UHGV virus genome: UHGV-0278671
Origin: a virus
Length of the DNA stretch: 27,730 nucleotides
Reading direction: 5' to 3' (one strand)
A program made the position numbers and the translations under genes. This document shows positions 90 to 27,730 of this stretch, one piece after another. The notes beneath the pieces were generated by a model, which saw only the letters and a list, made by a program, of their open reading frames with translations, was not told where the DNA came from and did no database searches. Each line of letters opens with the position of its first letter. Position 1 is the first letter of the stretch.

Positions 90-335
90 TCACTTATTTA
101 AGTGATATTGGTTGTCTGGAGATTCATGGGGCCAGTCTACTGCTCTATCAGTTATATCTTTCCCTTCATATACTTCACCTATATTGCTAATGCTGGCAGA
201 ACATCCAAGATGCTTGTATCTTATGATGTCCAACACGCAGTCACTACACAGCATCCGACCTGTTTCTTTAGAGTAAATGTATGTTTGATCAGCGTCTGAT
301 TCGCTAATGCCGCAGAAACAACATTCTTTACTCAT
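90..335 (-). CDS. Hypothetical zinc-ribbon protein (CCFCG...CSDC), sits where P22 has the antirepressor
   Basis: 81-aa ORF; ATG overlaps the stop of the upstream Arc-like ORF (ATGA), suggesting translational coupling; four Cys in a CxxC...CxxC arrangement. Function not recognised. Confidence 0.45.
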   Translation of the reverse strand: MSKECCFCGISESDADQTYIYSKETGRMLCSDCVLDIIRYKHLGCSASISNIGEVYEGKDITDRAVDWPHESPDNQYHLNK

Positions 336-472
336 ACCGTTATCCCCTCTCTCTTCAGGCTGTCCATCACCCGTTTAATTACTTCTGCACTAAATGAGCG
401 ACACTCTTCCTTTGCTTTCTCTTCAAGGATTTTTTCTAACTTCTCTGGCATACGCAGTGTTTTTACCTTCAT
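332..472 (-). CDS. arc: Arc-like ribbon-helix-helix repressor (46 aa, below the ORF-track size cutoff)
   Basis: Translation MKVKTLRMPEKLEKILEEKAKEECRSFSAEVIKRVMDSLKREGITV resembles P22 Arc as remembered; GGAGG Shine-Dalgarno 5 nt upstream of the ATG; divergent from the Mnt-like gene. Confidence 0.55.
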   Translation of the reverse strand: MKVKTLRMPEKLEKILEEKAKEECRSFSAEVIKRVMDSLKREGITV

Positions 473-502
473 TGCATCCTCCGTTGTATGTGGTACGCAT
501 AC

Positions 503-541
503 ATAGTATTTAGGTACGTATTGATAGTCAATAGATACCTA
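503..541 (-). promoter_or_regulatory. Promoter and palindromic operator of the arc-like operon
   Basis: Minus strand: -35 TTGACT (526-531), 17-nt spacer, -10 TACTAT (503-508). Near-perfect 31-bp palindrome taggtacgtattgaTagtcaatagataccta (511-541) overlaps the -35. Confidence 0.4.
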
Positions 542-577
542 CATATCCTGTGGTAAAAAATTATTCAGGATGTGCCG

Positions 578-826
578 ATGTCTGATCGTAAGTACAAAAA
601 CCCTCAAGTGAATCTGAGGCTTCCTGTAGAGATAAAGGAACGTCTTATTGAACTGGCTGAGGCTAATTCTCGTTCATTAAATGCTGAGATGGTCGCGGCA
701 CTTGAAGCGTGGACCGAAAAAAATAAACACATTCAAGCACTAGACCTTGCAACTATAGCATCACGATTGATAGATCTTGAACACGATGTTGAGACGCTAA
801 AGACCATGTATGGTAAGGATAAATAA
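578..826 (+). CDS. mnt: Mnt-like ribbon-helix-helix repressor
   Basis: NPQVNLRLPVEIKERLIELAEANSRSLNAEMVAAL aligns with P22 Mnt (FNFRMPMEVREKLKFRAEANGRSMNSELLQIV, from memory); AGGA 7 nt before ATG 578; ORF track begins at an in-frame GTG at 572. Confidence 0.7.
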   Translation: MSDRKYKNPQVNLRLPVEIKERLIELAEANSRSLNAEMVAALEAWTEKNKHIQALDLATIASRLIDLEHDVETLKTMYGKDK

Positions 827-828
827 AT

Positions 829-1107
829 ATGACAGATACCAAAGTGAACTTCAGAGAAACCATCTTCAAGGACTCAAGTGATGCTGTAAATGAGTATGCT
901 GATGGATTTGCTTACTCGTCTTTTGGGGATGTCGGAGCAAGATTTGGTTCAATAGCATTTTTTAAGCATGTTTCAGACTGGGTTAATAATGAGGAGATTC
1001 AGCCAGTTAGATACCAAATTGCCAACATTCGCATGAGTGAAAATCAACTTCTTGAACTGGCTAAGTATATAGTTTCTCAACACGAAGAATCAAAAAAATT
1101 AAGCTGA
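829..1107 (+). CDS. Hypothetical protein (92 aa), first gene downstream of mnt-like
   Basis: ORF starts 2 nt after the mnt stop; no recognisable motif. Confidence 0.45.
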   Translation: MTDTKVNFRETIFKDSSDAVNEYADGFAYSSFGDVGARFGSIAFFKHVSDWVNNEEIQPVRYQIANIRMSENQLLELAKYIVSQHEESKKLS

Positions 1108-1297
1108 CAGAGCCATGATTACTTTTCCTGCCGTAAATGCTGATCATGCAGCGGAGAAAAAGAGAACACTTGGTCGTATGGGGTCGACAGGTGGCTTCGG
1201 AGAAAAGTCCAATGCTTCGCCTCCAGTTACCAAGAATGATATAACCAAAAACAATAATATCGCTTATCTTGGAAAACAATACACTGAGGAGCATGCT

Positions 1298-1675
1298 ATG
1301 GGCAGCCCATCAAGAGAAGAGATTGACGCGAAGCTTGGTCAAAACAAAGCAGAAATTGAGTTAATATCTGCTAACATGCGCGCTGAAATTTCAGCTTTCA
1401 GAGAATTCCAATCTAAGCAATTTACAGCTATGAATCAGTCACTTAATGAAATTAAGGGACAGATATTCGCTAGCAATGGCGAAGTTGCAGGGCTCAAAGG
1501 TCAAATTGATGGCATTAAAACATCCATGACCGCGACCCAATGGCTCGTTGGTGCGGTTCTCGCTATGCTTGCGGTAATCATAACGCTTCCGCAGATTCAA
1601 TCTTACTTCAAGGTTTCTGAGCCGACTGCGAAGGAAGCCGCTAGTGAAACCCATGATACCAAAATAAAGCAGTGA
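1298..1675 (+). CDS. Membrane-anchored coiled-coil protein (XhlA-like architecture)
   Basis: GAGGA 8 nt before ATG 1298 (ORF track extends to 1115 through low-complexity sequence); heptad-like N-terminal region then a hydrophobic helix WLVGAVLAMLAVIITLP. Confidence 0.45.
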   Translation: MGSPSREEIDAKLGQNKAEIELISANMRAEISAFREFQSKQFTAMNQSLNEIKGQIFASNGEVAGLKGQIDGIKTSMTATQWLVGAVLAMLAVIITLPQIQSYFKVSEPTAKEAASETHDTKIKQ

Positions 1676-1703
1676 TCTTACCAATAAAACCAGGGAGGAC
1701 AAC

Positions 1704-1931
1704 ATGAAGCAATGGCTCATCATAATTGCTGTTTTTTTGCTCATTTACACTATTTTCCCAGCATTAAAAGCACCAATGCAAATAATTTCACTAGCAATAA
1801 TTGCGATTAGTGCTTTCATTGCAGTAGCCGTACTTGTGTTTAAGGTTTTAAAGTTTTTAGTTTGGCTATCAAAAGATGATGGATGCAAAGTTCATCAAGA
1901 AAAAGAAGGCAAAATAACCAAAGTTGACTAA
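1704..1931 (+). CDS. Small two-transmembrane protein with charged C-terminus (holin-like topology)
   Basis: GGAGG 5 nt before ATG; two hydrophobic helices (LIIIAVFLLIYTIF and IISLAIIAISAFIAVAVLVF) followed by a KDDGCKVHQEKEGK tail. Confidence 0.5.
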   Translation: MKQWLIIIAVFLLIYTIFPALKAPMQIISLAIIAISAFIAVAVLVFKVLKFLVWLSKDDGCKVHQEKEGKITKVD

Positions 1932-4051
1932 CTGTCACTAGCGAGCCATGTAATAATCCCCGTGCGGGCAATGGTTTTTGCTTCATCTGTTGATAAGGTT
2001 TTCTCCCATCTCTTAAATGCCCCAGATTGCATCAGTTTCCTTTCTATTACGCGTCTCACTTCTGCTCTGTCTACTGGTGCGTTTTGCAGGCGAAATAGCA
2101 TTGATTTAAACTCAGGAGAAGACAGTAGAGCATCAGCAGCCTTTATCCTGCTTGTTTTCCCTGACATCAATGCGGACGTTATCACCCCTGTTGCACCTAC
2201 ACCAGGAAGACCAGATAAGCTTGTAACACCTTCCGCCGCAGCAGCTTTTGAGGCTATTCCATAAATTTTTGCTAGACTACCCTTTTCCTTCAGAAAGTTA
2301 TTAACTTGCTGATCCACAAGGCTGCTAGCATACTGCTTACCAGTATTGAGTCTATTCATAGCCTTGGCTGCTTGATAAATCGTATCAAGGCGCTTTGATG
2401 CATCTGTGCCAATAGCATCACGGAGAGCCTTCATATTGGCCCCATTGCGTGACATTCCGTTATACCATTTTACAAATCCATCAACCCCTAATTGCTGACC
2501 TGGTGATTTAGCATAGCTGGTAAATGCTTTATTCATTGAGGTGAGAGCAACTTCCTGCCGCATATCCTTTGGAATCGACTTCATTAATTGCCTAAAGTCG
2601 CCACCGTTTCCTTTTGCCATATTAACAACGGCACTTTCAACTTTTGGAATTGCTGATTGCTGAAGTTTTCTACCCAAGACGGTTACAGCATCATCTTCAA
2701 TGGATTTTCGTTTTTTTACCAACTCCTTACCAAGCGTCCATAACTCCCCTGCGCCATATTTTTCTGCGACAGCCTGTTGGTCATCTGTTATGGCTGCATA
2801 TAACTTTTTAAGAACACCTGTTTCTTCATCCTTGAATGGGCCAGAGCCTTTGCCAATAGCTTGCCCCACCTGCTTTCTAGCGAGATCTAAACGCCCATAC
2901 GTTGGCAAGGTGTTTGGATCAAGTCGGTTCAATGTCCGCTTCATTATTGGAGATAATTCATCAATTCCCCCTATGTCATCAGCAAAATCCTCTAAAAAAT
3001 TCAACGTATTAGTTGCCTCAATCCGGTCTCTTACCGGAACCTTTTCGGCAATTTTGTTGTAGATGTTATCTGACTGATTTTGTAATGATGAAATGGTTTT
3101 ATCAAAATTATCTGCAAGCCTGTCAGAAACCAGTTGCTTATCAAGGCTTCCCCCAAATGAAGTTATCATTTCATCAGCTTTTCTTCCTAATTCAGTAATA
3201 AAACGCTTATGCGCCTCACTAATCTCCGTTCCAGGAAGACTTGCCACTGCATTATCAAGAGCCCTGACAGCAGGATTATTAGAGATCATGCCTGGAGTGG
3301 CATAATTTTCCAGTTCTAGCTCACGGATGGCATTTATCGCGTTAAAATCAGGATTAACTTCATCGGCGAAACCTTGAATAGCTCGTTGCCCGCCAATAAA
3401 TTTATTATCCATTGCGCCAGCAGCTTTCTTTAACGTTGCTTTAGATGATTTACTACCCATCCCTACGGATGAGCGATAAATATCTCCGGCACTATTTTTA
3501 ATTTTTCCTGCAATCTTCCCAAGCGCTGGACCAACAATCTCTGCTACAGGGCCAGCCACAGCGCCAATAGCAGCGCCGGAAGCAACATCGCTATTTGTTC
3601 CATTGGCTACAATAGCCCCTTCTCCAGCACCAAGCCCTGCGGCGGCAGCCAGCCTTGCCGCCCCTTTCGGAACCTGAGAAATAATCCCACCACCACTAAC
3701 AAATGGCGCTGCTTGTCCAACGAACTCACCAACATCTTGTGCGGTTGATGGTTTTGCCGCTAACTTCTGCTGTAGAGACTGAATTGCGGCTTGCTCTTCT
3801 GGTGTCATATCCTGAAATAGACCAACACCTTTACCAACATCCATCAATCCACTGAGAACGCCATACATAAAACGGTCGAAACCGTTAGCATTATTAACAA
3901 CATTTTCCTGTCTGGAATTTTCCTCTGGTGAAACCAAAGGTGATTGCTGCTGCTCTGGTTGGGAATCAAGCACAAAACCATCAGGAAGCTGTGAGTTATC
4001 AGGCTGATTATCGAGAACAAATCCTTCGGGTAAACCTACATCGGTTGCCAT
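1928..4051 (-). CDS. Putative DNA injection/ejection protein (P22 gp16 position), 707 aa
   Basis: Last large gene of the late operon; N-terminal tandem LP(E/D)GFVLD(N/S)QP repeats and Ala/Gly-rich stretches; assignment is by position in the P22-like gene order. Confidence 0.5.
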
Positions 4052-5379
4052 TGTCCGTTCCTATAAATGAGTTTCTGACCAGTTTTAGGGTTCGTTGCCG
4101 TCGCGCCTTCTGATATCCCACTTGGCGCAGCTTTTGTCTGCCCATTACCACCTTGTGGTGTAGGCTGCGCTGTGACATCGTCAAATAGCTTGGCCTTCCT
4201 TCTCCCTAAGCTTTTTTTCAGCCCTTGAGGAATAGTATCTCCATACGTATCCAGATATTCGTCTACCTGCTGGTTAAACTGCTGCCCCATAGCGTTGGCG
4301 TTAATTTTGGCTGCGTTAACAATGTTATCCCTCGCTTCCTGTGACAAGCCATTCCCTGCATTAAGCTGGTCTACATATCCTTTTATCTGCCCCCATATGC
4401 CATCAGAGCGCATGACCTGAACCTGTTCACCTTCGCGAACAACTGACTGAGGGTCGAGAGACTTCATGTAATTAAAGATAATCCCAAGTTGGGCAGCGCC
4501 AGTATTTACCTTGCTAAGGGCTTGCAGAGAGTTTGCCGCCGCTCTGACAGAGTTATAATTTTTGCCAAAATTGGTAATGTCAGAATTTAATCCCTTAATT
4601 AAGTCTGCTGACGGCTTACCTTTTTGCCCCAGCTCCATTAGCTTCACCCCCATCTCATCTGAGTGCATTTGTGCCCGCTGAGCCCTGTCTAGTTGAGCGT
4701 TTTGGATATTTGCCCATCCTCTCACGTTCTCCATGTCAGCCTGACGGATGCTTTCATCCAATCGCCCTTTCTCTAGTTGGCGACCAACCATCTTATCCTG
4801 ATAATCCAGCATTTTATCAGGACCAACAGCCCCTAGCGTCATAGTAGTCAGCATGTGTGATAGCTGCTCTGGATTCTGGATACCTGTCTGAATCATCCAG
4901 TCAGCATTAGCACCAACGCGATTTAACCTGTCCTTGTTGTCAGTAATGAATTTACTGTAGGCTTCCGGTCCCTGAGAAAGAGCGACGTTAGCCCTCATGG
5001 CTAAATCGCCCATATCGTTGCGTTGCTGCTCATTAAGACCGGAAAACGCCTGTTGTGCCTGTGCAACAAACGCTGGATTTTCCTTGGCAAACTTAAATAG
5101 TCCCGATGGATCACCAGAAGCCCATGCATCAGCGTGAACCTTATTGAACGCACTAATCGCTTTCTGTTGCTGTTCCTGATTGTAAATATCAGCAACTCCA
5201 GCCAGACCACGTAACGCGGTCAGACCAACGTTATTTGCACCTGAGCGAGCCAACTCATTGTTTTCGCGGATCAGACCAAGCGTTGCGTTAATGTCGCTTG
5301 CCTTTGGCGCATTCTCATTTTGCGTACCGATGCCAGCCAGAAAACCACCAGAATTAATACCCTGTTGCCAAGTAGCCAT
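4036..5379 (-). CDS. Putative DNA injection/ejection protein (P22 gp20 position), 447 aa
   Basis: Follows the tail-needle gene; Gln/Asn/Ala-rich like internal ejection proteins; positional inference. Confidence 0.5.
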
Positions 5380-5389
5380 TGATTACCCC

Positions 5390-5764
5390 TTAAAACAGCG
5401 AACCAAGCAGACCAAGACCAGCACCGATAACCTCATCCAGCAAGTAATCAACATCGCTACGCAGTACGACTATCTTCCCTTCGGCAGTTGTTAACCTGAC
5501 CTCAAGTAGATTTATCGCTTTTGTGTTTGCGGTGATTCTTGCGTCGTGATCAGCCAGTTCGACATCCTGTTCATCGTTTTTCACCTGAGCATCGTAAGCG
5601 CCCTGACCAGCCTGATTTGCCTTCCCGGCAATTGCGCCGACATCAGCCCCCTGATTAATGACATACAGCAGGTAAGACTGGCTGAATATATTGCGTGGCA
5701 AAATTGAAGCATCAAGCCGCGTAGCCTGAACCACAACAGGTGTATTGAGATTCGAATCAGCCAT
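5390..5764 (-). CDS. Tail needle protein (P22 gp26-like), unusually short at 124 aa
   Basis: [73 protein letters not shown] matches the P22 gp26 N-terminus as remembered; start is the internal ATG at 5764 overlapping the gp10 stop. Confidence 0.6.
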
Positions 5765-6754
5765 TACTCGATCCTTATCTGGCAGCCTGACAGAGTGACA
5801 GGTGACTTCGTGATAACGCGCAATCTGAAGCCGACATTTTTCCTGATGCGCCCGACACGCTTCCACAAAACGCGCTTGTCGTAAACGAACGGTTCATTCT
5901 GCTCAATCATCTGCTCACGACCGTAATTGATGCCGTCAGTGGTTGCAGAGAGAAAAAGTCGGTCAGCATACTGCGCAACGCCAGTTGACGATTCAACTTC
6001 AAGGTCGAAAACTCTGGCGTTATCCGCTTTGAACAACGGAGTAAACAGCAGGTGTTCCTGCTGCTTGTCGTACTGGCTGCTGATATCGAACTGCAATTTC
6101 CCGGTAACAGATTCCAGCTTATCGCCGCACGTTATCTGATTGCCTTCGTAAATGAAGTCGATAGCGCGGTACACATCGTCATACAAGCCAGTTTTCAACA
6201 CACACCATTGCGGACCATTGGCGCTTGAAGATGCGTCGTACACGAGGACATGATGCGGAAGGTGGATAATCAGCAACTCATGAGCATCAAATCGCAGAGA
6301 CTCCATCACGCCATCAGCCAGTTCATCAGCAGTGTAGGAGCGGAGGATTTTCTCAATGCTCGCGCTGGCGATTGGTGACACCTGACCGGAGCCGATGATG
6401 TATACAGACGGCGCACCTGTTGCCGGATTGCTGATGAACGCATAAGAATCAGCGAATGGCGTTTTGCAGTACACGACCACTTCCGGCAACATCACCGACT
6501 TCACTTTCTCCTTTGTACAGCTTGCCGCCACACACGCGATAAACAGCACTCTGCGCCATGTTGTACTCAACTCCGCGCGATACGCCGTTCACATCAGAAC
6601 GTTTGGCAATGCCCGGGAATGAGCGAAGATATCCGCTGCTGTTCAGGATTTCTTTGGGTGTAGCCAACATATTCACTGGCAGATAGTCGATATAGTCGGC
6701 GTTTCTAAAGTCTTTGCCGACACCTTTCATAAGCGGAAGTTGCTGAATCGGCAT
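5764..6754 (-). pseudogene. P22 gp10-like tail accessory gene, disrupted by an internal deletion and frameshift
   Basis: 6449..6754 encodes a gp10-like N-terminus (MPIQQLPLMKGVGKDFRNADYIDYLPVNMLATPKE...); 5764..6570 encodes a gp10-like C-terminus from YCKTPFADSYAFISNPATGAPSVYIIGSG in another frame; junction near 6470, about 130 codons missing. Confidence 0.6.
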
Positions 6755-6763
6755 TTATTCACC

Positions 6764-7225
6764 TCACGTACTCGGATCATCTTTCTCGATGTAAAACCGA
6801 TTCCACGTAAACGCGCTTTTGTTACCACTACCGCGAGGCATATCATTTCGCCGCTCAAGTGGTGGTATTTTGGTTAAAGCGATACAGATTGTTTGATATG
6901 CACTGTCAGCAGCGGTAAGGAGAGCGTCTGACGGCTGAATGACGTTATCCATGCACACTTGCACAGCGAGTTTCAAAGCGACGCCATCATTTGCCCATGC
7001 AGGGATACCTGAATCATCGTCAGGTAACGGCATGATGCCGTTTTCTGTATCAGCAAACTGATACCCAAGCTCGATACCTTTCGCCTGCCATGCTGCCATC
7101 ATGTCTTCGAGGTCATTAATGGCATCTTCAATTGCCTGAGGGTCAGCATCTGTCAACGTGGCATTGGAATACAGCCCGGCTTTTCGTAAAGCCTTTAGAA
7201 CGAGATCACCCTTCGTTTTCGCCAT
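6764..7225 (-). CDS. Head completion/tail accessory protein (P22 gp4-like)
   Basis: MAKTKGDLVLKALRKAGLYSNATLTDADPQAIEDAINDLEDMMAAW resembles P22 gp4 as remembered. Confidence 0.7.
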   Translation of the reverse strand: MAKTKGDLVLKALRKAGLYSNATLTDADPQAIEDAINDLEDMMAAWQAKGIELGYQFADTENGIMPLPDDDSGIPAWANDGVALKLAVQVCMDNVIQPSDALLTAADSAYQTICIALTKIPPLERRNDMPRGSGNKSAFTWNRFYIEKDDPST

Positions 7226-7394
7226 CTTCTTCCGCCTTAGCCACTTTTTGCTTCGTTGCGGTTTCTTCAGGAGTTTTTACCCAACCTTTTTTCAGGTGAG
7301 ATTTAACTTCTTCGTCATCAACAATGATGTAATCGACAGCAAACTGACCACAGGTGATCATGTTGCCAGGCTTATAGAGCATTGTTCGTGCCAT
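7206..7394 (-). CDS. Small hypothetical protein (62 aa)
   Basis: GGGAG 6 nt before the internal ATG at 7394; ORF track extends to 7433. Confidence 0.35.
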   Translation of the reverse strand: MARTMLYKPGNMITCGQFAVDYIIVDDEEVKSHLKKGWVKTPEETATKQKVAKAEEDGENEG

Positions 7395-7406
7395 TATCTT
7401 CTCCCA

Positions 7407-7430
7407 ATAAAAATGGGGCCGAAGCCCCAC
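7407..7430 (-). terminator. Rho-independent terminator after the coat gene
   Basis: On the minus strand: GGGGC-UUCG-GCCCC hairpin followed by AUUUUUAUU, directly after the coat stop. Confidence 0.5.
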
Positions 7431-7435
7431 CAAAA

Positions 7436-8527
7436 TTACTGCCCGGCAATAACGATGCCCGTATATTCAGGAACAAGTACAGAGCAACCGTACAGGGTGG
7501 TGAAACGCGCAGTGGTTACACCTTTGATGTGGTCGAAGGCGTAAGACATGATCAGCGTAGCGCCCTGCTCGGTGGTTGCTGTCATTACCTGTGGACCCTG
7601 ACCAGTCGGGAACGCCAGCTTGCCGTACATCAGTTCAACAGAACCATCAGCCCAGAACAGGTTAGCCGGTGCGGCATTTTTGTTGAGAATGGTGATTGCT
7701 GCGCCACTTGCCGCATTAGCATCAACGTTTGCATATGGTCGGCTGGCGACATCCGCGTTGTCAGGCGGCAGAATTTTCGGTGAGATAGTTACTGTCGTTC
7801 CGCTTACTGCCAGAACGCGGAATACCTGCGGCTGCCCGGTGGTATCTTTGGTGATCTGGTGTACAGAATTCACCCCTGCGATGGTAAACGCATCGCCAAC
7901 CTGCAAACCTTCAGCAGATACCGTAATGGTCCCCTGTCGGTTATCCACTGGCATATCGTTAGCATCTTTGGCTTCAACCTTGTGCGCAGGTGCTGCTGCC
8001 AGCGTAATGGAAGTTGCTATACCCTTCGGAACACGACCAGAAATATCGGTCTTGTAGCTATCGAAGGACGCAACCGGAGGGATTTGCGCTTTTTCGTATG
8101 CTGTCAGGGTTGTGCCCTGAGCATAGGCACGGTGACCAAGCTCGCCAGCAAGGTCTTTGTAGTTGAAGGGGTTCCAGAAAGAGCGACGGTTGATACCCTG
8201 AGGTACACCAATCGCCGTCATGGTGGCATCAATACCTGCCGCACAGTTCCACAAATCACGGCCCTGTGAACCTGTGGTTGAGTCAGCCATCGTGATCACG
8301 TTAGTAGCACGCTGCGTAACCATGGAAATCAGGTCAGAGTCAATCTGTGCAGCAAGGCGCATACCTGCGGCGCGACCAGCTTCAGTTTTATGTTCCGGGT
8401 CACGCATTTCACGCGCATCCAGAGTGTACAGAATGTTTTTCGGCTCCTTGAACACAGAAGGAACAAGGCGCTGAACCAGTGCTGTTGGCGTTTTGCCGCT
8501 GAGGTCTAGGCCTTCCTCAATGTTCAT
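7436..8527 (-). CDS. P22-like major coat protein, probably missing its N-terminal ~50 residues
   Basis: FWNPFNYKDLAGELG, RPYANVDAN and LFWADGSVEL resemble P22 gp5 segments (from memory); the ORF begins where P22 coat residue ~55 aligns. Confidence 0.6.
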   Translation of the reverse strand: MNIEEGLDLSGKTPTALVQRLVPSVFKEPKNILYTLDAREMRDPEHKTEAGRAAGMRLAAQIDSDLISMVTQRATNVITMADSTTGSQGRDLWNCAAGIDATMTAIGVPQGINRRSFWNPFNYKDLAGELGHRAYAQGTTLTAYEKAQIPPVASFDSYKTDISGRVPKGIATSITLAAAPAHKVEAKDANDMPVDNRQGTITVSAEGLQVGDAFTIAGVNSVHQITKDTTGQPQVFRVLAVSGTTVTISPKILPPDNADVASRPYANVDANAASGAAITILNKNAAPANLFWADGSVELMYGKLAFPTGQGPQVMTATTEQGATLIMSYAFDHIKGVTTARFTTLYGCSVLVPEYTGIVIAGQ

Positions 8528-9864
8528 GTGGTAGCGACGTTGCTCGGCATGTTCTCAAGCTGCGACGCACCTGTAATTTGCTGAATAGCCGTTCCGGTGT
8601 ACTGCAATAGCCCAGCAAGAGCAGGAGGCATTTGTGTCGGAGGTGTCCAGCCAGCAACCTGAGCCTCTGAAATGACCGTTCCGTTTTTGTCCTTCTTGCT
8701 GGTCATGGGAAGAACTGCAGGTCTTTTCTTATTCCTCTCTGCCCAGTGATTCATTAATGGACCGGGAATGAAATCAACATCCACGATAGGAATGCCATCG
8801 CCGCCAGCCTGAGTAGCGTTATCTGCAATCATGGAAACCATCAGGTTCTCAAGACGCTGTGCATCCATCGCTTTTGCTGCGTGGCCTTCGATTCGCTCCT
8901 GATTATCAACAAATGAACGACGCCCATATACCGGGATGAGAGGAATATGTTCGCCCGGAATACGCTTCGGTTCTTCCAGCCATTCAGCGCCAGACAGAAG
9001 ACCGCAATAAACTCGGCGTTTCTTCACCGTTCGCTCGCCAATCAGTTCGAATGCACCATCGGTCAGCTCGTCGACAATATCTTTGATTTGCTCTTCATCA
9101 TAGATTGCCGTTTCTCCGCTGACAGGGTTACGCCATGCTGTGAGCTTTACCTTCTCTATGCGGACTTCGTAGTAGCGTCCAACATAGATGGCGTCAGGCG
9201 TTGACCAGTCATACTGAGTACCAGTGTCATCACGAGAAAGGCTTGCCGCGATGGAATCAGGGTATTCAGCCTCGAACGCTTTAGGCGTCATGGAGAACAT
9301 TTCCATAGCCCACATGGCATCAGAGCGGTCATATTGCTTGCTGTCCTGATCGAAGAAGACGCATGTCGCCGGGTCGTAAACAGGAAGAAGGCTGATGCGT
9401 CGCTGCTCGTTACTCGGATCCATTTCATCTTCGTAATCAGCGCACATGCGGAAACAACCGAATCCGCCCGTTACAGCATCATCAAATGCGTTATCACACG
9501 CTTCGCCACCGGATGTTTCCTGATAATCAGCGCGGAATTTGCCGTTCATCTTTTCGGCTAACGCTTCCGATGCCTTGTCATCCTTCGGCCTGAATTTAAC
9601 GCTGATGCGATTCTGTCGATACTCGCCAATGATGCGATCACATTCACGGGCAATCTTATTCAGTTCAAAGCGCGGGTAATGCTCAAACCTGCCTTCATCA
9701 AATGAGTAACCAGCGTTTGTGCTGCCTTCCCACTGTGCGCCGGACACCCGGACGAAACGTTGAGCCTCAATAATCTGCTTACGCATATCCTGCGTTGCTG
9801 ACCAGGCATTATCAAAGTTGCACAGCACCTTGCGATGCCAGTCAGTCATCTTTTTTTCTGCCAT
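8524..9864 (-). CDS. Portal protein (P22 gp1-like), apparently C-terminally truncated (446 aa versus ~700)
   Basis: KKRRVYCGLLSGAEWLEEPKRIPGEHIPLIPVYG matches the P22 portal IKRRRVY...AGEHIPIVPVFG region as remembered; the ORF ends where crown/barrel domains would follow and abuts the coat gene with no scaffold gene between. Confidence 0.6.
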   Translation of the reverse strand: MAEKKMTDWHRKVLCNFDNAWSATQDMRKQIIEAQRFVRVSGAQWEGSTNAGYSFDEGRFEHYPRFELNKIARECDRIIGEYRQNRISVKFRPKDDKASEALAEKMNGKFRADYQETSGGEACDNAFDDAVTGGFGCFRMCADYEDEMDPSNEQRRISLLPVYDPATCVFFDQDSKQYDRSDAMWAMEMFSMTPKAFEAEYPDSIAASLSRDDTGTQYDWSTPDAIYVGRYYEVRIEKVKLTAWRNPVSGETAIYDEEQIKDIVDELTDGAFELIGERTVKKRRVYCGLLSGAEWLEEPKRIPGEHIPLIPVYGRRSFVDNQERIEGHAAKAMDAQRLENLMVSMIADNATQAGGDGIPIVDVDFIPGPLMNHWAERNKKRPAVLPMTSKKDKNGTVISEAQVAGWTPPTQMPPALAGLLQYTGTAIQQITGASQLENMPSNVATT

Positions 9865-9865
9865 A

Positions 9866-10837
9866 TCAACCTACACCACAAGGAATTGAGTAACTGGAAT
9901 AGTCGGGTTGCGCAGCCGACTCCGGGCAATGCATACACATCATCAGCGCATCAGCCAGGTTAGGAGATGGAATACCGAGCTTCTGCTTCATTTCGACCTT
10001 AGTCATAAGCTCCAGCTTCCCGTTGTTATTGAATTTGCGCTGAATCTGCGTCAGTTCTGCAAACAGCTTCTCCAGCATCTTCTCGCCTATCGCTTCTTTG
10101 TCGAAGCTCAGCATGTCGTCTGGGTCTGCATACTCACCGTGGACAACCGCCCGATATGTCAGATACAGCCTGTCAGCCAGCGCGTAATAGAATTGCGCTC
10201 GCTTATTGCGGAACACATCGCCAATAGTGCGAACGTTGTCGCCCTGTACGACTTCATCGGCCCATGCTCCGGCCTGATATGGTGCATCTTCATCGAATGG
10301 CGATTCGCTACCCTTGAACATCGTGGCGGTGATTTTCTTGCCGGAGAACGCTTCCGTTGTCTGTCTGCGCAGCCCTGCACCGACACCATCGCCATCCCAC
10401 AGGTAATGGTCAGCGCCGTCTTCAATCGCCAGCGAAGTTGCCCAGTCAGCACCCTCGTTGATGTCCATCAGCAGACCTTCGGCAATGCGCTTAACTACCG
10501 AACCGTGACGCGATGCATAACCTTTAGCATCTGGCCCTGTATCTGACGGGTCATGTGCAGAGACAACAGCGCCTTTCGCTTTCCATCCGAGTTTCTTGTG
10601 CGCATCGGTTGCGGATTCAAGCCATTCACGTTTGATGATTGCCATATCACTTGCGCTTACTGGATCACCAAGCCAGATGTGACGATACAGTGTCGGATTT
10701 CTACGTTTACACTCTTCCATCTCCAGACGGAGAACTTCAGGAAAGTGCGGGTTCCCGGATCTACGCTCTCCATGAACTTCGCTATTACGCTGCTCATGCG
10801 CTTTTCCAGACGACCTGAATAAACCCATGCGCCCCAC
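9866..10837 (-). pseudogene. Terminase large subunit, C-terminal nuclease-domain fragment; ATPase domain absent
   Basis: Reading from about NPHFPEV... HIWLGDPV... AHDPSDTGPDAKGYA... SPNLADALMMCM looks like a terminase C-terminal domain; no Walker A region; directly upstream of portal. Confidence 0.6.
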
Positions 10838-10902
10838 AGTTCAAGCCAGCCATTCAGCCACTCATGCTGTTCTTTGGTGAGGTTTAGTTCTCTTATGCCC
10901 AC
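10657..10902 (-). pseudogene. Q: N-terminal fragment of a Q-type late antiterminator (WGAW family)
   Basis: First ~47 residues ([47 protein letters not shown]) resemble the Q82/QuuD-family N-terminus (WGAW motif); the remainder looks like read-through and overlaps the terminase fragment. Confidence 0.45.
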
Positions 10903-12356: not shown

Positions 12357-12531
12357 CGTCTTCTTCCTCGTACATTGAGCTATTCGGATCGCTCATCAGT
12401 TCTGCGCAGCAGTGCTCACACACGTGAACTTCCAGCACATGCAGCTTCTGACCGCAGTTAGCGCACGTTAAAGCTCGCTCGACGCTTTCTTTCTGGTATT
12501 GAAGGGATTGGGATGGGCTAAGCATTAACAA
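12349..12531 (-). CDS. ninF: NinF
   Basis: [44 protein letters not shown] matches lambda NinF as remembered. Confidence 0.85.
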
Positions 12532-13465
12532 CCTCCATACAAACTTTCACGAATGCCGTTGCTACTTCTGCATTGATTGCGTTTCCATATCCAATAATTC
12601 GCTGATCTTGATTGCGCTTTGCCATTCTTCCCAGTGTGGACTTGCCTCGTCCCAAGCTTTTGGCAATGCCATTAACCATCGGGAATGAGCCGGGTCTAAC
12701 TGGACGATATTTTTCATCTCTACAGTAAAGCCAGTCTGCATCTCTCCAGAAGCCGTTAACCGGTAATGGGTACATAGCTTCACCGTCCCGGGAAGTTTCA
12801 AGCAGATTCTTGGGGTTCCGCTCTTGTCTTTTCCGCTGTAGCAATGCGTTGAACCTGTTGCATCGTTCGCTAAAGGAGTTTGCCATCCCGCTAGTCTCAC
12901 GCATCCAGATAGGTTCTGAATTCCCCTGCGTGTCTCTGGCTGAAAGTTGATATTTGTCGTTGGAGTAGGCCACCCAATACAATCGCTGCCTGATGTGCGG
13001 AGAACCGAAGCCCGCAGCGCAAATATCGGTACCTGCAGAGGTGTAGTTCGCACCTTCCAAGTCAGTTTGTACAAGGTCGAGCCAAGCGAGGCCGTCTGCG
13101 CTTGCAACCTGTTCGCCAATAACGATGCCAGGATTGCATTTTTCAATAAGCCAGAAGAATGCCGGCCATAAGTGCCGCTCGTCATCAACCCCTTTTCCTT
13201 TGCCTGCCGAGCTGAAAGGTTGGCATGGGCAACTTCCTGTCCAGATACTCTTGTTGTCTGGCCATCCTGCTTTTCTAAGTGCATAGCTCCAAACTCCGAT
13301 TCCTGCAAAAAAGTGGTGCTGGGTAAATCCTCGCAAATCACCTGGTGTGACATCTTCAATACTCCTTTCATCTACATACCGTCTGTCGCTGTTGTATGCA
13401 CTGCTCAGCGGCTTTTTCCACCCACGGTCTGATATTGCTGTACGGTGGGTTATTCCAGATTGCAC
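12518..13465 (-). CDS. DNA (cytosine-5)-methyltransferase-like gene, atypical; true start uncertain
   Basis: Motif I FFAGIG, motif IV GSCPCQPFSSAGK, ENV-like IVIGEQV, motif VIII PHIRQRLYWVAY, motif X-like GYGNAINAEVATAF. Only ~25 residues separate motifs I and IV; the first ~33 codons overlap the Dam fragment; a second long ORF (12562..13371) overlaps in another frame. Confidence 0.55.
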   Translation of the reverse strand: MQSGITHRTAISDRGWKKPLSSAYNSDRRYVDERSIEDVTPGDLRGFTQHHFFAGIGVWSYALRKAGWPDNKSIWTGSCPCQPFSSAGKGKGVDDERHLWPAFFWLIEKCNPGIVIGEQVASADGLAWLDLVQTDLEGANYTSAGTDICAAGFGSPHIRQRLYWVAYSNDKYQLSARDTQGNSEPIWMRETSGMANSFSERCNRFNALLQRKRQERNPKNLLETSRDGEAMYPLPVNGFWRDADWLYCRDEKYRPVRPGSFPMVNGIAKSLGRGKSTLGRMAKRNQDQRIIGYGNAINAEVATAFVKVCMEVVNA

Positions 13466-13652
13466 CGTGGCTTATCCACTCAGAATTTAGCGCGTCGTCG
13501 GCCTCAGTTAACCAGTGAGCGCACAGAGCATTTTTGTCGCTCGCTGCCGAATCCAGCCAGAATCCAAACTCAATATCCAGTGCATCAAAAAGCCAAAGCG
13601 GCGTTTGCCAGCAGTCCTTGTCGTGTGCTGGCGTATTTGATTTGATAGTCAT
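13368..13652 (-). pseudogene. Phage Dam-type N6-adenine methyltransferase, N-terminal fragment
   Basis: DKDCWQTPLWLFDALDIEFGFWLDSAAS...WNNPPYS matches the phage Dam family pattern; the ORF stops ~25 codons after NPPY; ATG overlaps the ninB stop (ATGA). Confidence 0.55.
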
Positions 13653-14089
13653 GCAGCCCGATCTCCCCATCTCGCTTTCCACTCCAGAGCCAGTCTCGCT
13701 TCGTCTGACCACTTAACGCCACGCTCTGTACCGAATGCCTGTATAAGCTCTAATAGCTCCGCAAATTCGCTTACACGCATCCTGCTGGTTGACTGGCCTA
13801 TTACCACAAAGCCATTCCCGGCAAGGTTAGGAACAACGTCCTGCTGCTTTAATGCTGCGGTAAACACACACTTCCAGCTTTCTGCATCCAGCCAACGCCC
13901 ATGCCATTCAACCTGACGAGAGACGTCACCAAGGCAAGCCCAAAGCTTTCGATTCTGGTCTAAGCTGCGGTTGCGCTCCTGAATGATCACTACGATTGGC
14001 TTGGTTGGGTCTGGAAGGATTTGCTGTACCGCGTGAATAGCGTTTTGCTGATGTGCCGGAGATCGAATTTCAAAGGTTAGTTTTTTCAT
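13649..14089 (-). CDS. ninB: NinB recombination protein
   Basis: 146 aa from the internal ATG (MKKLTFEIRSPAHQQNAIHAVQQILPDPTKPIVV...), near-identical to lambda NinB as remembered. Confidence 0.9.
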   Translation of the reverse strand: MKKLTFEIRSPAHQQNAIHAVQQILPDPTKPIVVIIQERNRSLDQNRKLWACLGDVSRQVEWHGRWLDAESWKCVFTAALKQQDVVPNLAGNGFVVIGQSTSRMRVSEFAELLELIQAFGTERGVKWSDEARLALEWKARWGDRAA

Positions 14090-17889: not shown

Positions 17890-18606
17890 ATGGAAAATAA
17901 AAAATCACTGACGACAGAACAGCTCGAAGACGCTAAGCGGCTTAAGGCTTTGTATGAGTCAAAAAAGAAAGAATTGGGGATAACCCAATACTCAATCGCT
18001 GATGAACTGGGTATCACCCAAGGAGCGGTAGGGCATTATCTTAATGGCAGAAACGCGCTAAACGTTGAGGTTGCATCTGGTTTTGCACGACTGTTGCAAG
18101 TCTCAATTGCTGATTTTAGCCAGTCAATTGCTGCCAAGGTTGCAGAACAGGCAGAAAGCCTTAAGAGCGATGCCAACGTAAGGTATGCAGGGGAATACAG
18201 AGCAGGAAAGAGGTATCCGGTGTTAAGCAGTATCCAGGCTGGCTCGTGGTGTGAAGCATGCGAACCATACACCATTAAAGACATAGATGTTTGGCTTGAG
18301 TCTGACGCGCATATTCAAGGTAATGCGTTCTGGCTTAAAGTGGAAGGTGATTCAATGACGGCACCGGTTGGGTTAAGCATTCCAGAGGGAACATTCGTTC
18401 TTTTCGATACCGGAAGGGAGGCGATCAACGGCAGCTTGGTCATAGCAAAACTTTCTGACTCTAACGAAGCAACATTCAAGAAGCTGATAATCGACGGCGG
18501 AAATAAATACCTTAAGGGACTTAATCCTGCATGGCCTCTCGTGCCAATCAATGGAAACTGCAAGATTATAGGCGTTGCAATTGAGACAAAACTAAGGCTG
18601 GTTTGA
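17890..18606 (+). CDS. cI: CI repressor (HTH plus LexA-like self-cleaving C-terminal domain)
   Basis: N-terminus LTTEQLEDAKRLKALYESKKKELGITQ and HTH; C-terminal FWLKVEGDSMTAP...FKKLI matches lambda CI FWLEVEGNSMTAP...FKKLI (catalytic Ser/Lys context). Confidence 0.9.
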   Translation: MENKKSLTTEQLEDAKRLKALYESKKKELGITQYSIADELGITQGAVGHYLNGRNALNVEVASGFARLLQVSIADFSQSIAAKVAEQAESLKSDANVRYAGEYRAGKRYPVLSSIQAGSWCEACEPYTIKDIDVWLESDAHIQGNAFWLKVEGDSMTAPVGLSIPEGTFVLFDTGREAINGSLVIAKLSDSNEATFKKLIIDGGNKYLKGLNPAWPLVPINGNCKIIGVAIETKLRLV

Positions 18607-21051: not shown

Positions 21052-21759
21052 ATGGATTTGAACAAATTCGATGAGCCATTCAGCCCTGAAGATATCGAAT
21101 GGCGAATACAGCAAAGCGGTAAAACACGCGATGGCAAAGTGTGGGCTATGGTGCTGGCTTATGTCACGAACCGGGCAATCATGAAACGCCTGGACGATGT
21201 TTGCGGCAAAGCAGGATGGCGCAATGAATACCGCGATATTCCCAACAACGGCGGCGTTGAATGCGGCATATCAATAAAGATTGATTCCGAATGGGTAACC
21301 AAATGGGATGCTGCTGAAAACACGCAGGTAGAAGCCGTCAAAGGTGGTCGTTCCGGTGCAATGAAGCGCGCTGCCGTTCAGTGGGGAATCGGTCGGTATC
21401 TGTATAACCTTGAGGAAGGTTTCGCACAAACATCTCTCGATAAAAAGCAGGGGTGGCACAGGGCAAAACTCAAGGATGGAACAGGATTTTACTGGCTCCC
21501 TCCATCGCTGCCGGGATGGGCAATCCCAGCATCAGATAACAAACCATCACCAGAAAGTACCAACCAGAAATCTCCATCGGTTGACTGCGAGAAAATCCTG
21601 AAAGACTTCAGCGATTATGCGTCAACAGAAACTGACAAGAAAAAACTCATCGAGCGTTATCAGCGTGACTGGCAATTAATGGCTGGCAATGAGGATGCGC
21701 AGGCTAAATGCGTTCAGGTAATGAACATCAGAGTTAACGAGCTAAAACAGGCGGCATAA
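21052..21759 (+). CDS. Single-strand annealing protein: Rad52/Sak-like N-terminus fused to an Erf-like C-terminal domain
   Basis: N-terminal region resembles Rad52-family annealing proteins; C-terminus YASTETDKKKLIERYQRDWQLMAGNEDAQAKCVQVMNIRVNELKQAA matches the P22 Erf C-terminus as remembered. Confidence 0.75.
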   Translation: MDLNKFDEPFSPEDIEWRIQQSGKTRDGKVWAMVLAYVTNRAIMKRLDDVCGKAGWRNEYRDIPNNGGVECGISIKIDSEWVTKWDAAENTQVEAVKGGRSGAMKRAAVQWGIGRYLYNLEEGFAQTSLDKKQGWHRAKLKDGTGFYWLPPSLPGWAIPASDNKPSPESTNQKSPSVDCEKILKDFSDYASTETDKKKLIERYQRDWQLMAGNEDAQAKCVQVMNIRVNELKQAA

Positions 21760-26379: not shown

Positions 26380-26571
26380 ATGACCGATACCAGCCTGATT
26401 CCTGAGAAAGAAGTGATGAACAAGCTCGGTGTTTCATCACGTCAGACAATCTGGAACTATACCAAACGGCACGGATTTCCGAAGCCAGTCAGAACCCACC
26501 CCAAATCATACCTTCGTGAAGCTGTTGAGGGGTGGATTCTTAACGGTGGCGTTAATCAGAAATGCTCCTGA
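26380..26571 (+). CDS. alpA: AlpA-family regulator/excisionase
   Basis: 63 aa with HTH KEVMNKLGVSSRQTIWNYTKRHGFPKP typical of the AlpA/Xis family; GGAG before the ATG. Confidence 0.65.
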   Translation: MTDTSLIPEKEVMNKLGVSSRQTIWNYTKRHGFPKPVRTHPKSYLREAVEGWILNGGVNQKCS

Positions 26572-27730
26572 TGTGCCAGAACAATTTATCAGCGTGAAGC
26601 TCATACGCTTTGCGCTGAGCCTCTATCCAGTCGTGTTTATTGTATACGGACATTATCCCGCCAAGTTCATGACCGAGCATTCGCTCAGTAACATGAGGCT
26701 CGACATTCATCTCGGACAGACGTGTAACAAGCGTTCTTCTGAAATCGTGTGTTCGCCAGTAACCTAGATCCATCCCTCCCCTTATTCTATTTACGAATCG
26801 GTTGGCTGCAGCGATGCTGATCGGTTTGTTTATGTCTTCTCCAGGGAAAAGAACATCATTGTACGTTGTCATGGCCTTTTCGAGGAAAGGCTTAATTTGT
26901 TCGAAGATTGGACGGCGGATAACATTACCCATCTTGCTATGCTCTTTCGGTACGGTCCATACGTTTTCCAGCAGGTCAAATTCTGTCTTTTTTGCCAGCC
27001 TAAGCTCTGAGAGCCTCGCCCCCCACAGCATAAGCATCTGATGAAGTAGCTTATTTGACGTAGACGCACGGCTTCTTTCAATAGCAAGCCAAATCTTAGC
27101 CAGTTCGTGATACGACAGTACCCGATCCCCTACCTCAGCGCGGGAGCCGAAGTCCCTTGGTTGGATGCTCATAATTGCGCAACTATCTATCAACTGACGC
27201 CGCATGCACCAACTTATTGCTGATCTTAGTTGACTTAGCACCTGCCTTGCTCGGCGTGGATTATCTTTTTCTTCTTCGGTAAGCAGGTCAACCCATTGCT
27301 TAACCGTGATAGAAGATGCCGGACGATTAGGAAAGGCGTCATGCATGCGCTTCATAACCGTTGATCGGTAAAGTGCCTGGGTCTTTTCTCTGAGAGTTGT
27401 AGAGACGTAGTTGTCGAACCAGTAGTCGAGACACTGGGCGACCGTCATGGAGTTCTCCACCTTCTCTTCAAAATAAGTGCGTGGATCCGTTCCTGAGAAA
27501 TAGAGCTTTCGCAAGTCAGCAGTGATCTGTCTGGCATCCTTCAAAGACAGGGATGGGTATCGACCAAGCCCAAGTCGATTAGGCTTGCCATGCCAGCGAT
27601 AGCGGTACTGGAACTGGATGACCCCCTTCGGTGAAATTCGTACGCTGAGGCCATCGGCATCAGCCACTTCTTGTGGGCCCGAATATGGTTTACCATAAAT
27701 AGTACGCAGTTTTGTGTCGCTTATAGCCAT
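26552..27730 (-). CDS. int: Tyrosine-type site-specific integrase (P4-like arm-binding N-terminus)
   Basis: 392 aa; N-terminal LRTIYGKPYSGPQEVADADGLSVRISPKGVIQFQYRYRWHGK; C-terminal catalytic residues in HDFRRT...LGHE...YNKHDW; start codon is the last three bases of the window. Confidence 0.9.
   Translation of the reverse strand: MAISDTKLRTIYGKPYSGPQEVADADGLSVRISPKGVIQFQYRYRWHGKPNRLGLGRYPSLSLKDARQITADLRKLYFSGTDPRTYFEEKVENSMTVAQCLDYWFDNYVSTTLREKTQALYRSTVMKRMHDAFPNRPASSITVKQWVDLLTEEEKDNPRRARQVLSQLRSAISWCMRRQLIDSCAIMSIQPRDFGSRAEVGDRVLSYHELAKIWLAIERSRASTSNKLLHQMLMLWGARLSELRLAKKTEFDLLENVWTVPKEHSKMGNVIRRPIFEQIKPFLEKAMTTYNDVLFPGEDINKPISIAAANRFVNRIRGGMDLGYWRTHDFRRTLVTRLSEMNVEPHVTERMLGHELGGIMSVYNKHDWIEAQRKAYELHADKLFWHIRSISD

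Follow-up and report, generated by a model that had tools for sequence, protein, structure and literature searches.

A tail hub gene split by an internal deletion in a probable defective P22-like prophage

General features of the prophage

The window described here, which is the whole stretch of DNA analyzed (27,730 nucleotides of virus genome UHGV-0278671), very probably represents a defective P22-like prophage (Lederbergvirus, CUS-3/Sf6-type) of an Escherichia/Shigella-type host, in which the gene for the tail hub protein gp10 persists as a pseudogene. The window carries an integrase and immunity genes, while essential lytic and morphogenetic genes are missing or cut. Its late genes, all of which lie on the minus strand, share 93–97% nucleotide identity across the late operon with phage CUS-3 and its relatives (phiv205-1, Sf6, HK620, and IME10) and are collinear with them in order apart from a number of deletions, and the nin/early organization is also similar. 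Unlike these functional phages, the window lacks ~9 kb in five blocks, and where they have the ant side of immI it carries an IS3-family end.

Entirely absent from the window are the small terminase subunit TerS, the lysis cassette (holin, endolysin, Rz/Rz1), the scaffold gene and gp14, while gp7 (last 11 codons), antiterminator Q, the large terminase subunit TerL, the portal, the coat, gp10 and gp26 are present only as fragments. In a prophage that has lost Q, the late promoter region, the lysis genes, TerS, scaffold and gp14 and that keeps gp7 only as a stub, late transcription would presumably be lost, and neither the formation of virions nor lysis of the host would be expected. A preliminary description of this DNA had proposed decay of the tail module. 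A morphogenetic module is indeed decaying, but not in its tail genes only, the lesions also affecting coat, scaffold, portal, both terminase subunits, the lysis cassette, Q, two methyltransferases of the nin region and immI.

The gp10 locus

Two minus-strand ORFs of 101 aa (6449–6754) and 268 aa (5764–6570) were listed at the position of gp10, and these are flanked by an intact gp4-like gene and by the start of a gp26-like gene at 5764. The features of the locus are as follows.

6764–7225, minus strand: gp4 head-to-tail adaptor, intact, 153 aa, 100% identical to CUS-3 gp4 (tblastn)
6470–6754, minus strand: N-terminal remnant of gp10 (tail hub), codons 1–95, the ORF as read extending to 6449 (Pfam, tblastn, translation)
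6469–6472: gp10 deletion junction, 428 bp missing, microhomology of 2 bp (TA) (blastn block ends, three-way alignment with CUS-3)
5764–6469 (codons 6469–5767), minus strand: C-terminal remnant of gp10, codons 238–472 and stop (Pfam, tblastn, translation)

Both ORFs possess matches to the P22 gp10 family domain Phage_stabilise (PF11134, 469 positions) that are far beyond chance, the 101-aa ORF covering profile positions 1–92 (E-value 2e-50) and the 268-aa ORF positions 234–469 (E-value 4.8e-146), with positions 93–233 absent from both. With tblastn, residues 1–95 of the 472-aa CUS-3 gp10 align to 6754–6470 in frame −1 with 98.9% identity, and its C-terminal part aligns to 6561–5767 in frame −2. 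Direct translation shows the N-terminal fragment to follow CUS-3 gp10 through AGSGRV, which ends at residue 95, with a single substitution (I58V), after which come six out-of-frame codons (LQNAIR) and a stop. True homology in the C-terminal fragment resumes at Tyr238 (YCKTPFADS) and continues to the normal stop. This second remnant lies in a different frame to the first, and a start codon of its own is lacking at the homologous position. Over residues 1–95 and 238–472 the remnants have 95–99% protein identity to gp10 of the CUS-3/Sf6 type.

At the nucleotide level the window aligns with CUS-3 in collinear blocks at 5425–6471 and 6470–8533, between which the offset jumps by 428 bp. The join itself falls at 6470/6471, and in a three-way alignment only TA (perhaps ATA) is common to both parental positions. 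Relative to every intact homolog examined the loss amounts to 142 codons plus 2 nt, and it is the length of 428 bp that causes the frameshift. Even an in-frame version of the gene would be without residues 96–237. The preliminary description had placed a gp10 gene split by internal deletion and frameshift at 5764–6754 with a breakpoint near 6470, and the domain matches, tblastn, translation and the blastn offset agree with this reading, its coordinates and its breakpoint; its figure of about 130 missing codons was somewhat low. One continuous ORF of ~472 aa over the whole PF11134 profile is absent. The synteny gp4-gp10-gp26 is kept, with the N-terminus of gp26 at 5426–5764. The locus is, as judged from its sequence, a pseudogene of the PF11134 family rather than a functional member of it.

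The missing middle of the tail hub

The tail hubs with solved structures are all proteins of 471–472 aa, these being P22 gp10 (8TVR and 8EAP) and Sf6 gp8 (7SG7). The Sf6 hub is a six-bladed beta-propeller whose N- and C-terminal extensions form one apical domain; this domain docks on the gp4-type adaptor, while the second blade touches the needle (PMC9728967). The remnants in the window resemble P22 gp10 and Sf6 gp8 in their protein sequence (95–99% identity) and in their canonical position between gp4 and gp26. They differ in that all solved and retrieved hubs are single proteins of 471–472 aa, whereas the window has no residues 96–237 and divides the remainder between two frames. By its position in the sequence, the lost segment would correspond to roughly 30% to a third of a single gp10 fold, taken from the middle of the chain. 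By analogy with the solved hubs, a gp10 without these residues is predicted to have a broken beta-propeller and to be incompatible with function.

The gp26-gp7 fusion

Next to gp10 lies a 124-aa ORF which had been suggested to encode a short tail needle. The ORF is real, but it is a fusion remnant created by deletion and no natural short needle.

5390–5764, minus strand: 124-aa fusion ORF, gp26 residues 1–113 followed in frame by the last 11 residues of gp7 (tblastn, translation)
5425–5429: deletion junction 1, 1477 bp lost, 5-bp microhomology CGATA (comparison with CUS-3; same boundary against loci L017–L022)

The 11 residues at the C-terminus of this ORF are identical to the C-terminus of CUS-3 gp7. 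The deletion took with it the C-terminus of gp26, all of gp14 and the whole of gp7 except its last codons.

Other deletions and the remainder of the prophage

Three further junctions were identified on the other side of gp4, together with the remnants that they have left.

7436–8533, minus strand: coat remnant without its first ~50–54 residues (tblastn of coat residues 51–417; blastn block boundary)
8530–8533: deletion junction 3, 2026 bp lost, 4-bp microhomology GGTA (blastn against CUS-3)
8524–9864, minus strand: portal remnant, residues 1–445 of 732 (tblastn)
9866–10753, minus strand: TerL remnant, residues 175–471 (tblastn)
10752–10753: deletion junction 4, ~4.5 kb (~4509 bp) lost, 2-bp microhomology (block offsets, tblastn)
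10753–10902, minus strand: antiterminator Q remnant, first 50 codons only (tblastn of Q residues 1–50; collinear with locus L016)
13377–13378: deletion junction 5, in the nin region, 513 bp lost, 2-bp microhomology TA (block offsets against relatives)

Junction 3 removed the N-terminus of the coat protein, the scaffold gene and the C-terminus of the portal. At junction 4 the loss comprises TerL residues 1–174, TerS, two small ORFs, Rz/Rz1, endolysin and holin, as well as the Q-S intergenic region and Q codons 51–172. Junction 5 cuts the ORFs 13368–13712 and 12518–13465, with loss of the C-terminal 83 aa of an N6-adenine methyltransferase, ninE and the first 28 aa of a C5-cytosine methyltransferase. 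The remnant of the latter (12518–13465, 315 aa) overlaps an ORF of 269 aa (12562–13371) in a different frame of the minus strand; this second ORF gave no hit in Pfam and probably represents a spurious alternative frame.

At the left end of the window the prophage is bordered by an insertion sequence, beyond which come the immI region and the genes for the ejection proteins.

1–139: end of an IS3-family insertion sequence adjoining the immI (arc/mnt) region (100% matches in E. coli)
1928–4051, minus strand: ejection protein gp16, 707 aa, apparently intact (phrog_6704; exact protein in 43 blocks of the collection searched)
4036–5379, minus strand: ejection protein gp20, 447 aa, apparently intact (with gp16 forming the span 1928–5379)

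The first 139 nucleotides occur at 21,735 places in 4,738 E. coli genomes, where they are annotated as IS3 family transposase, and resemble the left end of IS2. Relatives of the prophage align only from position 140, so that the IS terminus meets immI at 139/140 and truncates it. On the far side of this boundary the relatives carry a 67-aa ORF, ant and the tailspike gene. The moron region of immI (829–1675) has two plus-strand ORFs of 92 aa (phrog_4231) and 186 aa (phrog_5820), the second of which is called at 125 aa in the related loci L017–L020.

The gp20/gp16 region has a Pfam match to PF16928 (E-value 5.6e-106), and phrog_6704 is matched at full length. The protein at the gp16 position gives no Pfam hit at E ≤ 0.01, with only a sub-threshold match to Tape_meas_lam_C; it belongs to a PHROG of its own and looks to be a divergent variant of the ejection protein of limited occurrence, being common to those 43 blocks only.

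In comparison with PHROG profiles and with relatives, the early region looks full-length, with genes identified for a cI-like repressor (17890–18606), cro, N, erf, ssb, an O-like protein and a 626-aa primase-helicase. At the right end, a tyrosine recombinase ORF (26552–27730) matches annotated integrases in E. coli chromosomes. It is encoded on the minus strand and converges with the early-left operon, and its ATG forms the last three bases of the window, whose edge is thus a gene boundary. Structured RNAs were not detected when the whole window was scanned with Rfam, and no tRNA genes were found in it.

Occurrence of the short form in other genomes

With a 301-bp query centred on the gp10 junction, all isolated phages spanning this position (29 of 29) were found to keep the 428 bp, aligning in two pieces over 729 bp. 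The best-ranked hits among 5,426 complete E. coli genomes take the same two-piece form, again over 729 bp with the 428 bp present. Exact-pattern scans did not find the gp10 junction in GTDB species representatives, IMG/VR or JGI metagenomes, nor the TerL/Q junction in the GTDB representatives. In exact look-ups, the proteins of both gp10-region fragments, the truncated portal and gp20 had no record in the collection.

The exact gp4 protein is, by contrast with these, recorded in 32,926 blocks and adjoins a gp10 of 472 aa in all 10 places shown. For the exact gp16 protein, each of the six loci shown carries gp10 of 472 aa, gp26 of 233–317 aa, gp14 and gp7. The gene order gp4 (153 aa), gp10 (472 aa), gp26 (212–317 aa), gp14 (151–159 aa) and gp7 (217–234 aa) is present in 16 of the 16 intact loci retrieved. 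Homologs sharing the short architecture in functional phages, which would speak for a natural short form, were not encountered among the phages and genomes searched, and as far as these searches reach the deletion junctions appear to be private to this prophage.

Mechanism and age of the deletions

Against intact relatives the collinear blocks show five offset jumps, of 1477, 428, 2026, ~4509 and 513 bp, with microhomology at the junctions of 5, 2, 4, 2 and 2 bp respectively. These sum to 15 bp, for which P is ~1e-4 under random breakpoints. Such microhomology fits RecA-independent illegitimate recombination, by slippage or end joining, and argues against both assembly jumps and arbitrary cuts. 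In gp10, a 428-bp intragenic deletion between 2–3 bp of microhomology would have removed codons 96–237 with a change of frame, so that an N-terminal stub of 95 codons and a C-terminal remnant of 235 codons without a start are left. Illegitimate recombination at short microhomologies would also account for at least four further events in the same prophage, and an IS3-family element lies at the border of immI. The gp10 remnants themselves would do nothing and may be regarded as recent debris.

Internal stops and small frameshifts are absent from all of the remnants. Relative to a panel of 12 loci, the substitutions private to the window number 13 synonymous to 6 nonsynonymous. The C-terminal fragment of gp10 differs from its closest homolog among complete E. 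coli genomes, the gp10 of E. coli KD602 (97.3% identity), by 25 synonymous changes and one nonsynonymous change. The resulting pN/pS of 0.01 suggests that gp10 was under strong purifying selection until shortly before its deletion, and the lack of point decay in the remnants suggests that the deletions are evolutionarily recent. An old pseudogene was considered and rejected, as relaxed selection is not seen in the remnants.

Five large deletions with almost no point decay make for a more deletion-rich pattern than simple neutral decay suggests. Selection against costly or lethal late genes may be behind this, or possibly breaks that occurred in one burst and were repaired by end joining. The stronger form of the latter idea, that the five deletions are the footprint of one double-strand-break burst mended by microhomology-mediated (alternative) end joining and not of slow neutral decay, is considered quite unlikely. 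It could draw on the 2–5 bp of microhomology, the deletion sizes of 0.4–4.5 kb, their clustering in ~17 kb of ancestral late and nin DNA and the absence of point decay. Possible causes of such a burst include nuclease attack in an aborted induction, restriction and CRISPR self-targeting. Weaker still is the idea that the 95-residue gp10 stub, in which part of the gp4-binding apical domain is retained, has been maintained as a dominant-negative decoy acting on superinfecting P22-like phages.

Alternative explanations for the split gene

The junctions could also have arisen otherwise than by deletion from a single prophage genome. It is conceivable, though unlikely, that illegitimate recombination joined two different P22-like genomes, co-resident or superinfecting, at these points, which would result in the same pseudogene. 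Similarity to relatives does change at two of the junctions: the window is 99.9% identical to the intact locus L017 (GCA_037641545.1) up to junction 1 (140–5429) and 93% identical directly beyond it (5425–6471), while at the gp10 junction E. coli EC1515 is 99.7% identical on the N-terminal side and 88% on the C-terminal side. However, mosaic P22-like phages switch their nearest relatives every few hundred bases anyway, and mosaic boundaries may lie inside the deleted DNA. In addition, the segments are all in canonical gene order and orientation, as is expected for deletions within one genome. It is very unlikely that gp10 is intact in the organism and that the contig is in error through assembly or sequencing, although the exact junction and the exact fragment products were found nowhere else among the data searched. 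The 428-bp gap is no homopolymer or base-calling error, and no single-base correction could restore gp10. Five separate junctions carry the same signature, each with clean coding sequence on either side. Long shared k-mers and homologous positions are where assembly jumps arise; at these junctions no more than 2–5 bp are shared and the positions joined are not homologous. Assembly collapse at repeats was rejected on the same ground of the 2–5 bp shared.

That the two fragments form a natural short or two-piece tail hub in working order, by means of a split gene or programmed frameshifting, is an extremely remote prospect. Both are free of stops and highly conserved, as such a hub would demand, but the phages, prophages and metagenome contigs searched yielded no example of this architecture, and the 142 residues missing are the middle of a single-domain beta-propeller. 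The change of frame is +2 following a loss of 428 bp and does not resemble a shift at a slippery site. With gp14, gp7, scaffold, TerS, the lysis genes and Q gone, there would moreover be no virion for such a hub to serve. A pseudogene produced by deletion in a defective prophage is thus the reading preferred here.

Comparison with other prophages

Decay of prophages by deletion and IS insertion is well described, as in the case of grounded prophages (PMC6379469). The prophage in the window has lost lysis and morphogenesis functions through deletion and IS events and has kept regulatory and early genes, a pattern it shares with the defective ("cryptic" or "grounded") prophages known from E. coli and Shigella, among them DLP12, Rac and Qin. 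Unlike these, it appears to be very young, with remnants free of point decay and with private junctions. Independent lesions were found in other P22-like prophages of E. coli. That of strain JKHS016 (L014, 8137–10739) has a coat/portal deletion which removed the scaffold gene and is annotated as pseudogenes, and in that of strain EC1515 (L023, 6872–8667) an IS3-family insertion splits gp4. These suggest that such decay is commonplace in the P22-like prophages of E. coli.

A different arrangement is seen in an otherwise intact P22-like prophage (L012, 10472–12563; GCA_048106505.1), which has an HNH/NUMOD4 endonuclease gene between gp4 and gp10. This gene is preceded by a duplicated 34-aa stub of the gp10 N-terminus and looks like a homing endonuclease insertion. 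For the window, interruption of gp10 by a homing endonuclease or intron was considered and rejected, there being a loss and not an insertion, at a position other than that of the HNH gene.

For annotation, ORFs 5764–6570 and 6449–6754 should be treated as a single gp10 pseudogene and the 124-aa ORF as a gp26'-'gp7 fusion remnant instead of a short tail needle, while the prophage itself is best recorded as defective, neither lytic nor inducible to particles. What is seen in it is ordinary prophage decay, which is already known biology and nothing new in kind; the only mildly unusual aspect is the number of deletions gathered before any point decay. Were the idea of a single break burst true, the prophage would illustrate how a prophage can be disarmed in one step in nature. 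On the preferred reading of a defective prophage, it provides one more case of prophage inactivation via deletions at short microhomologies.
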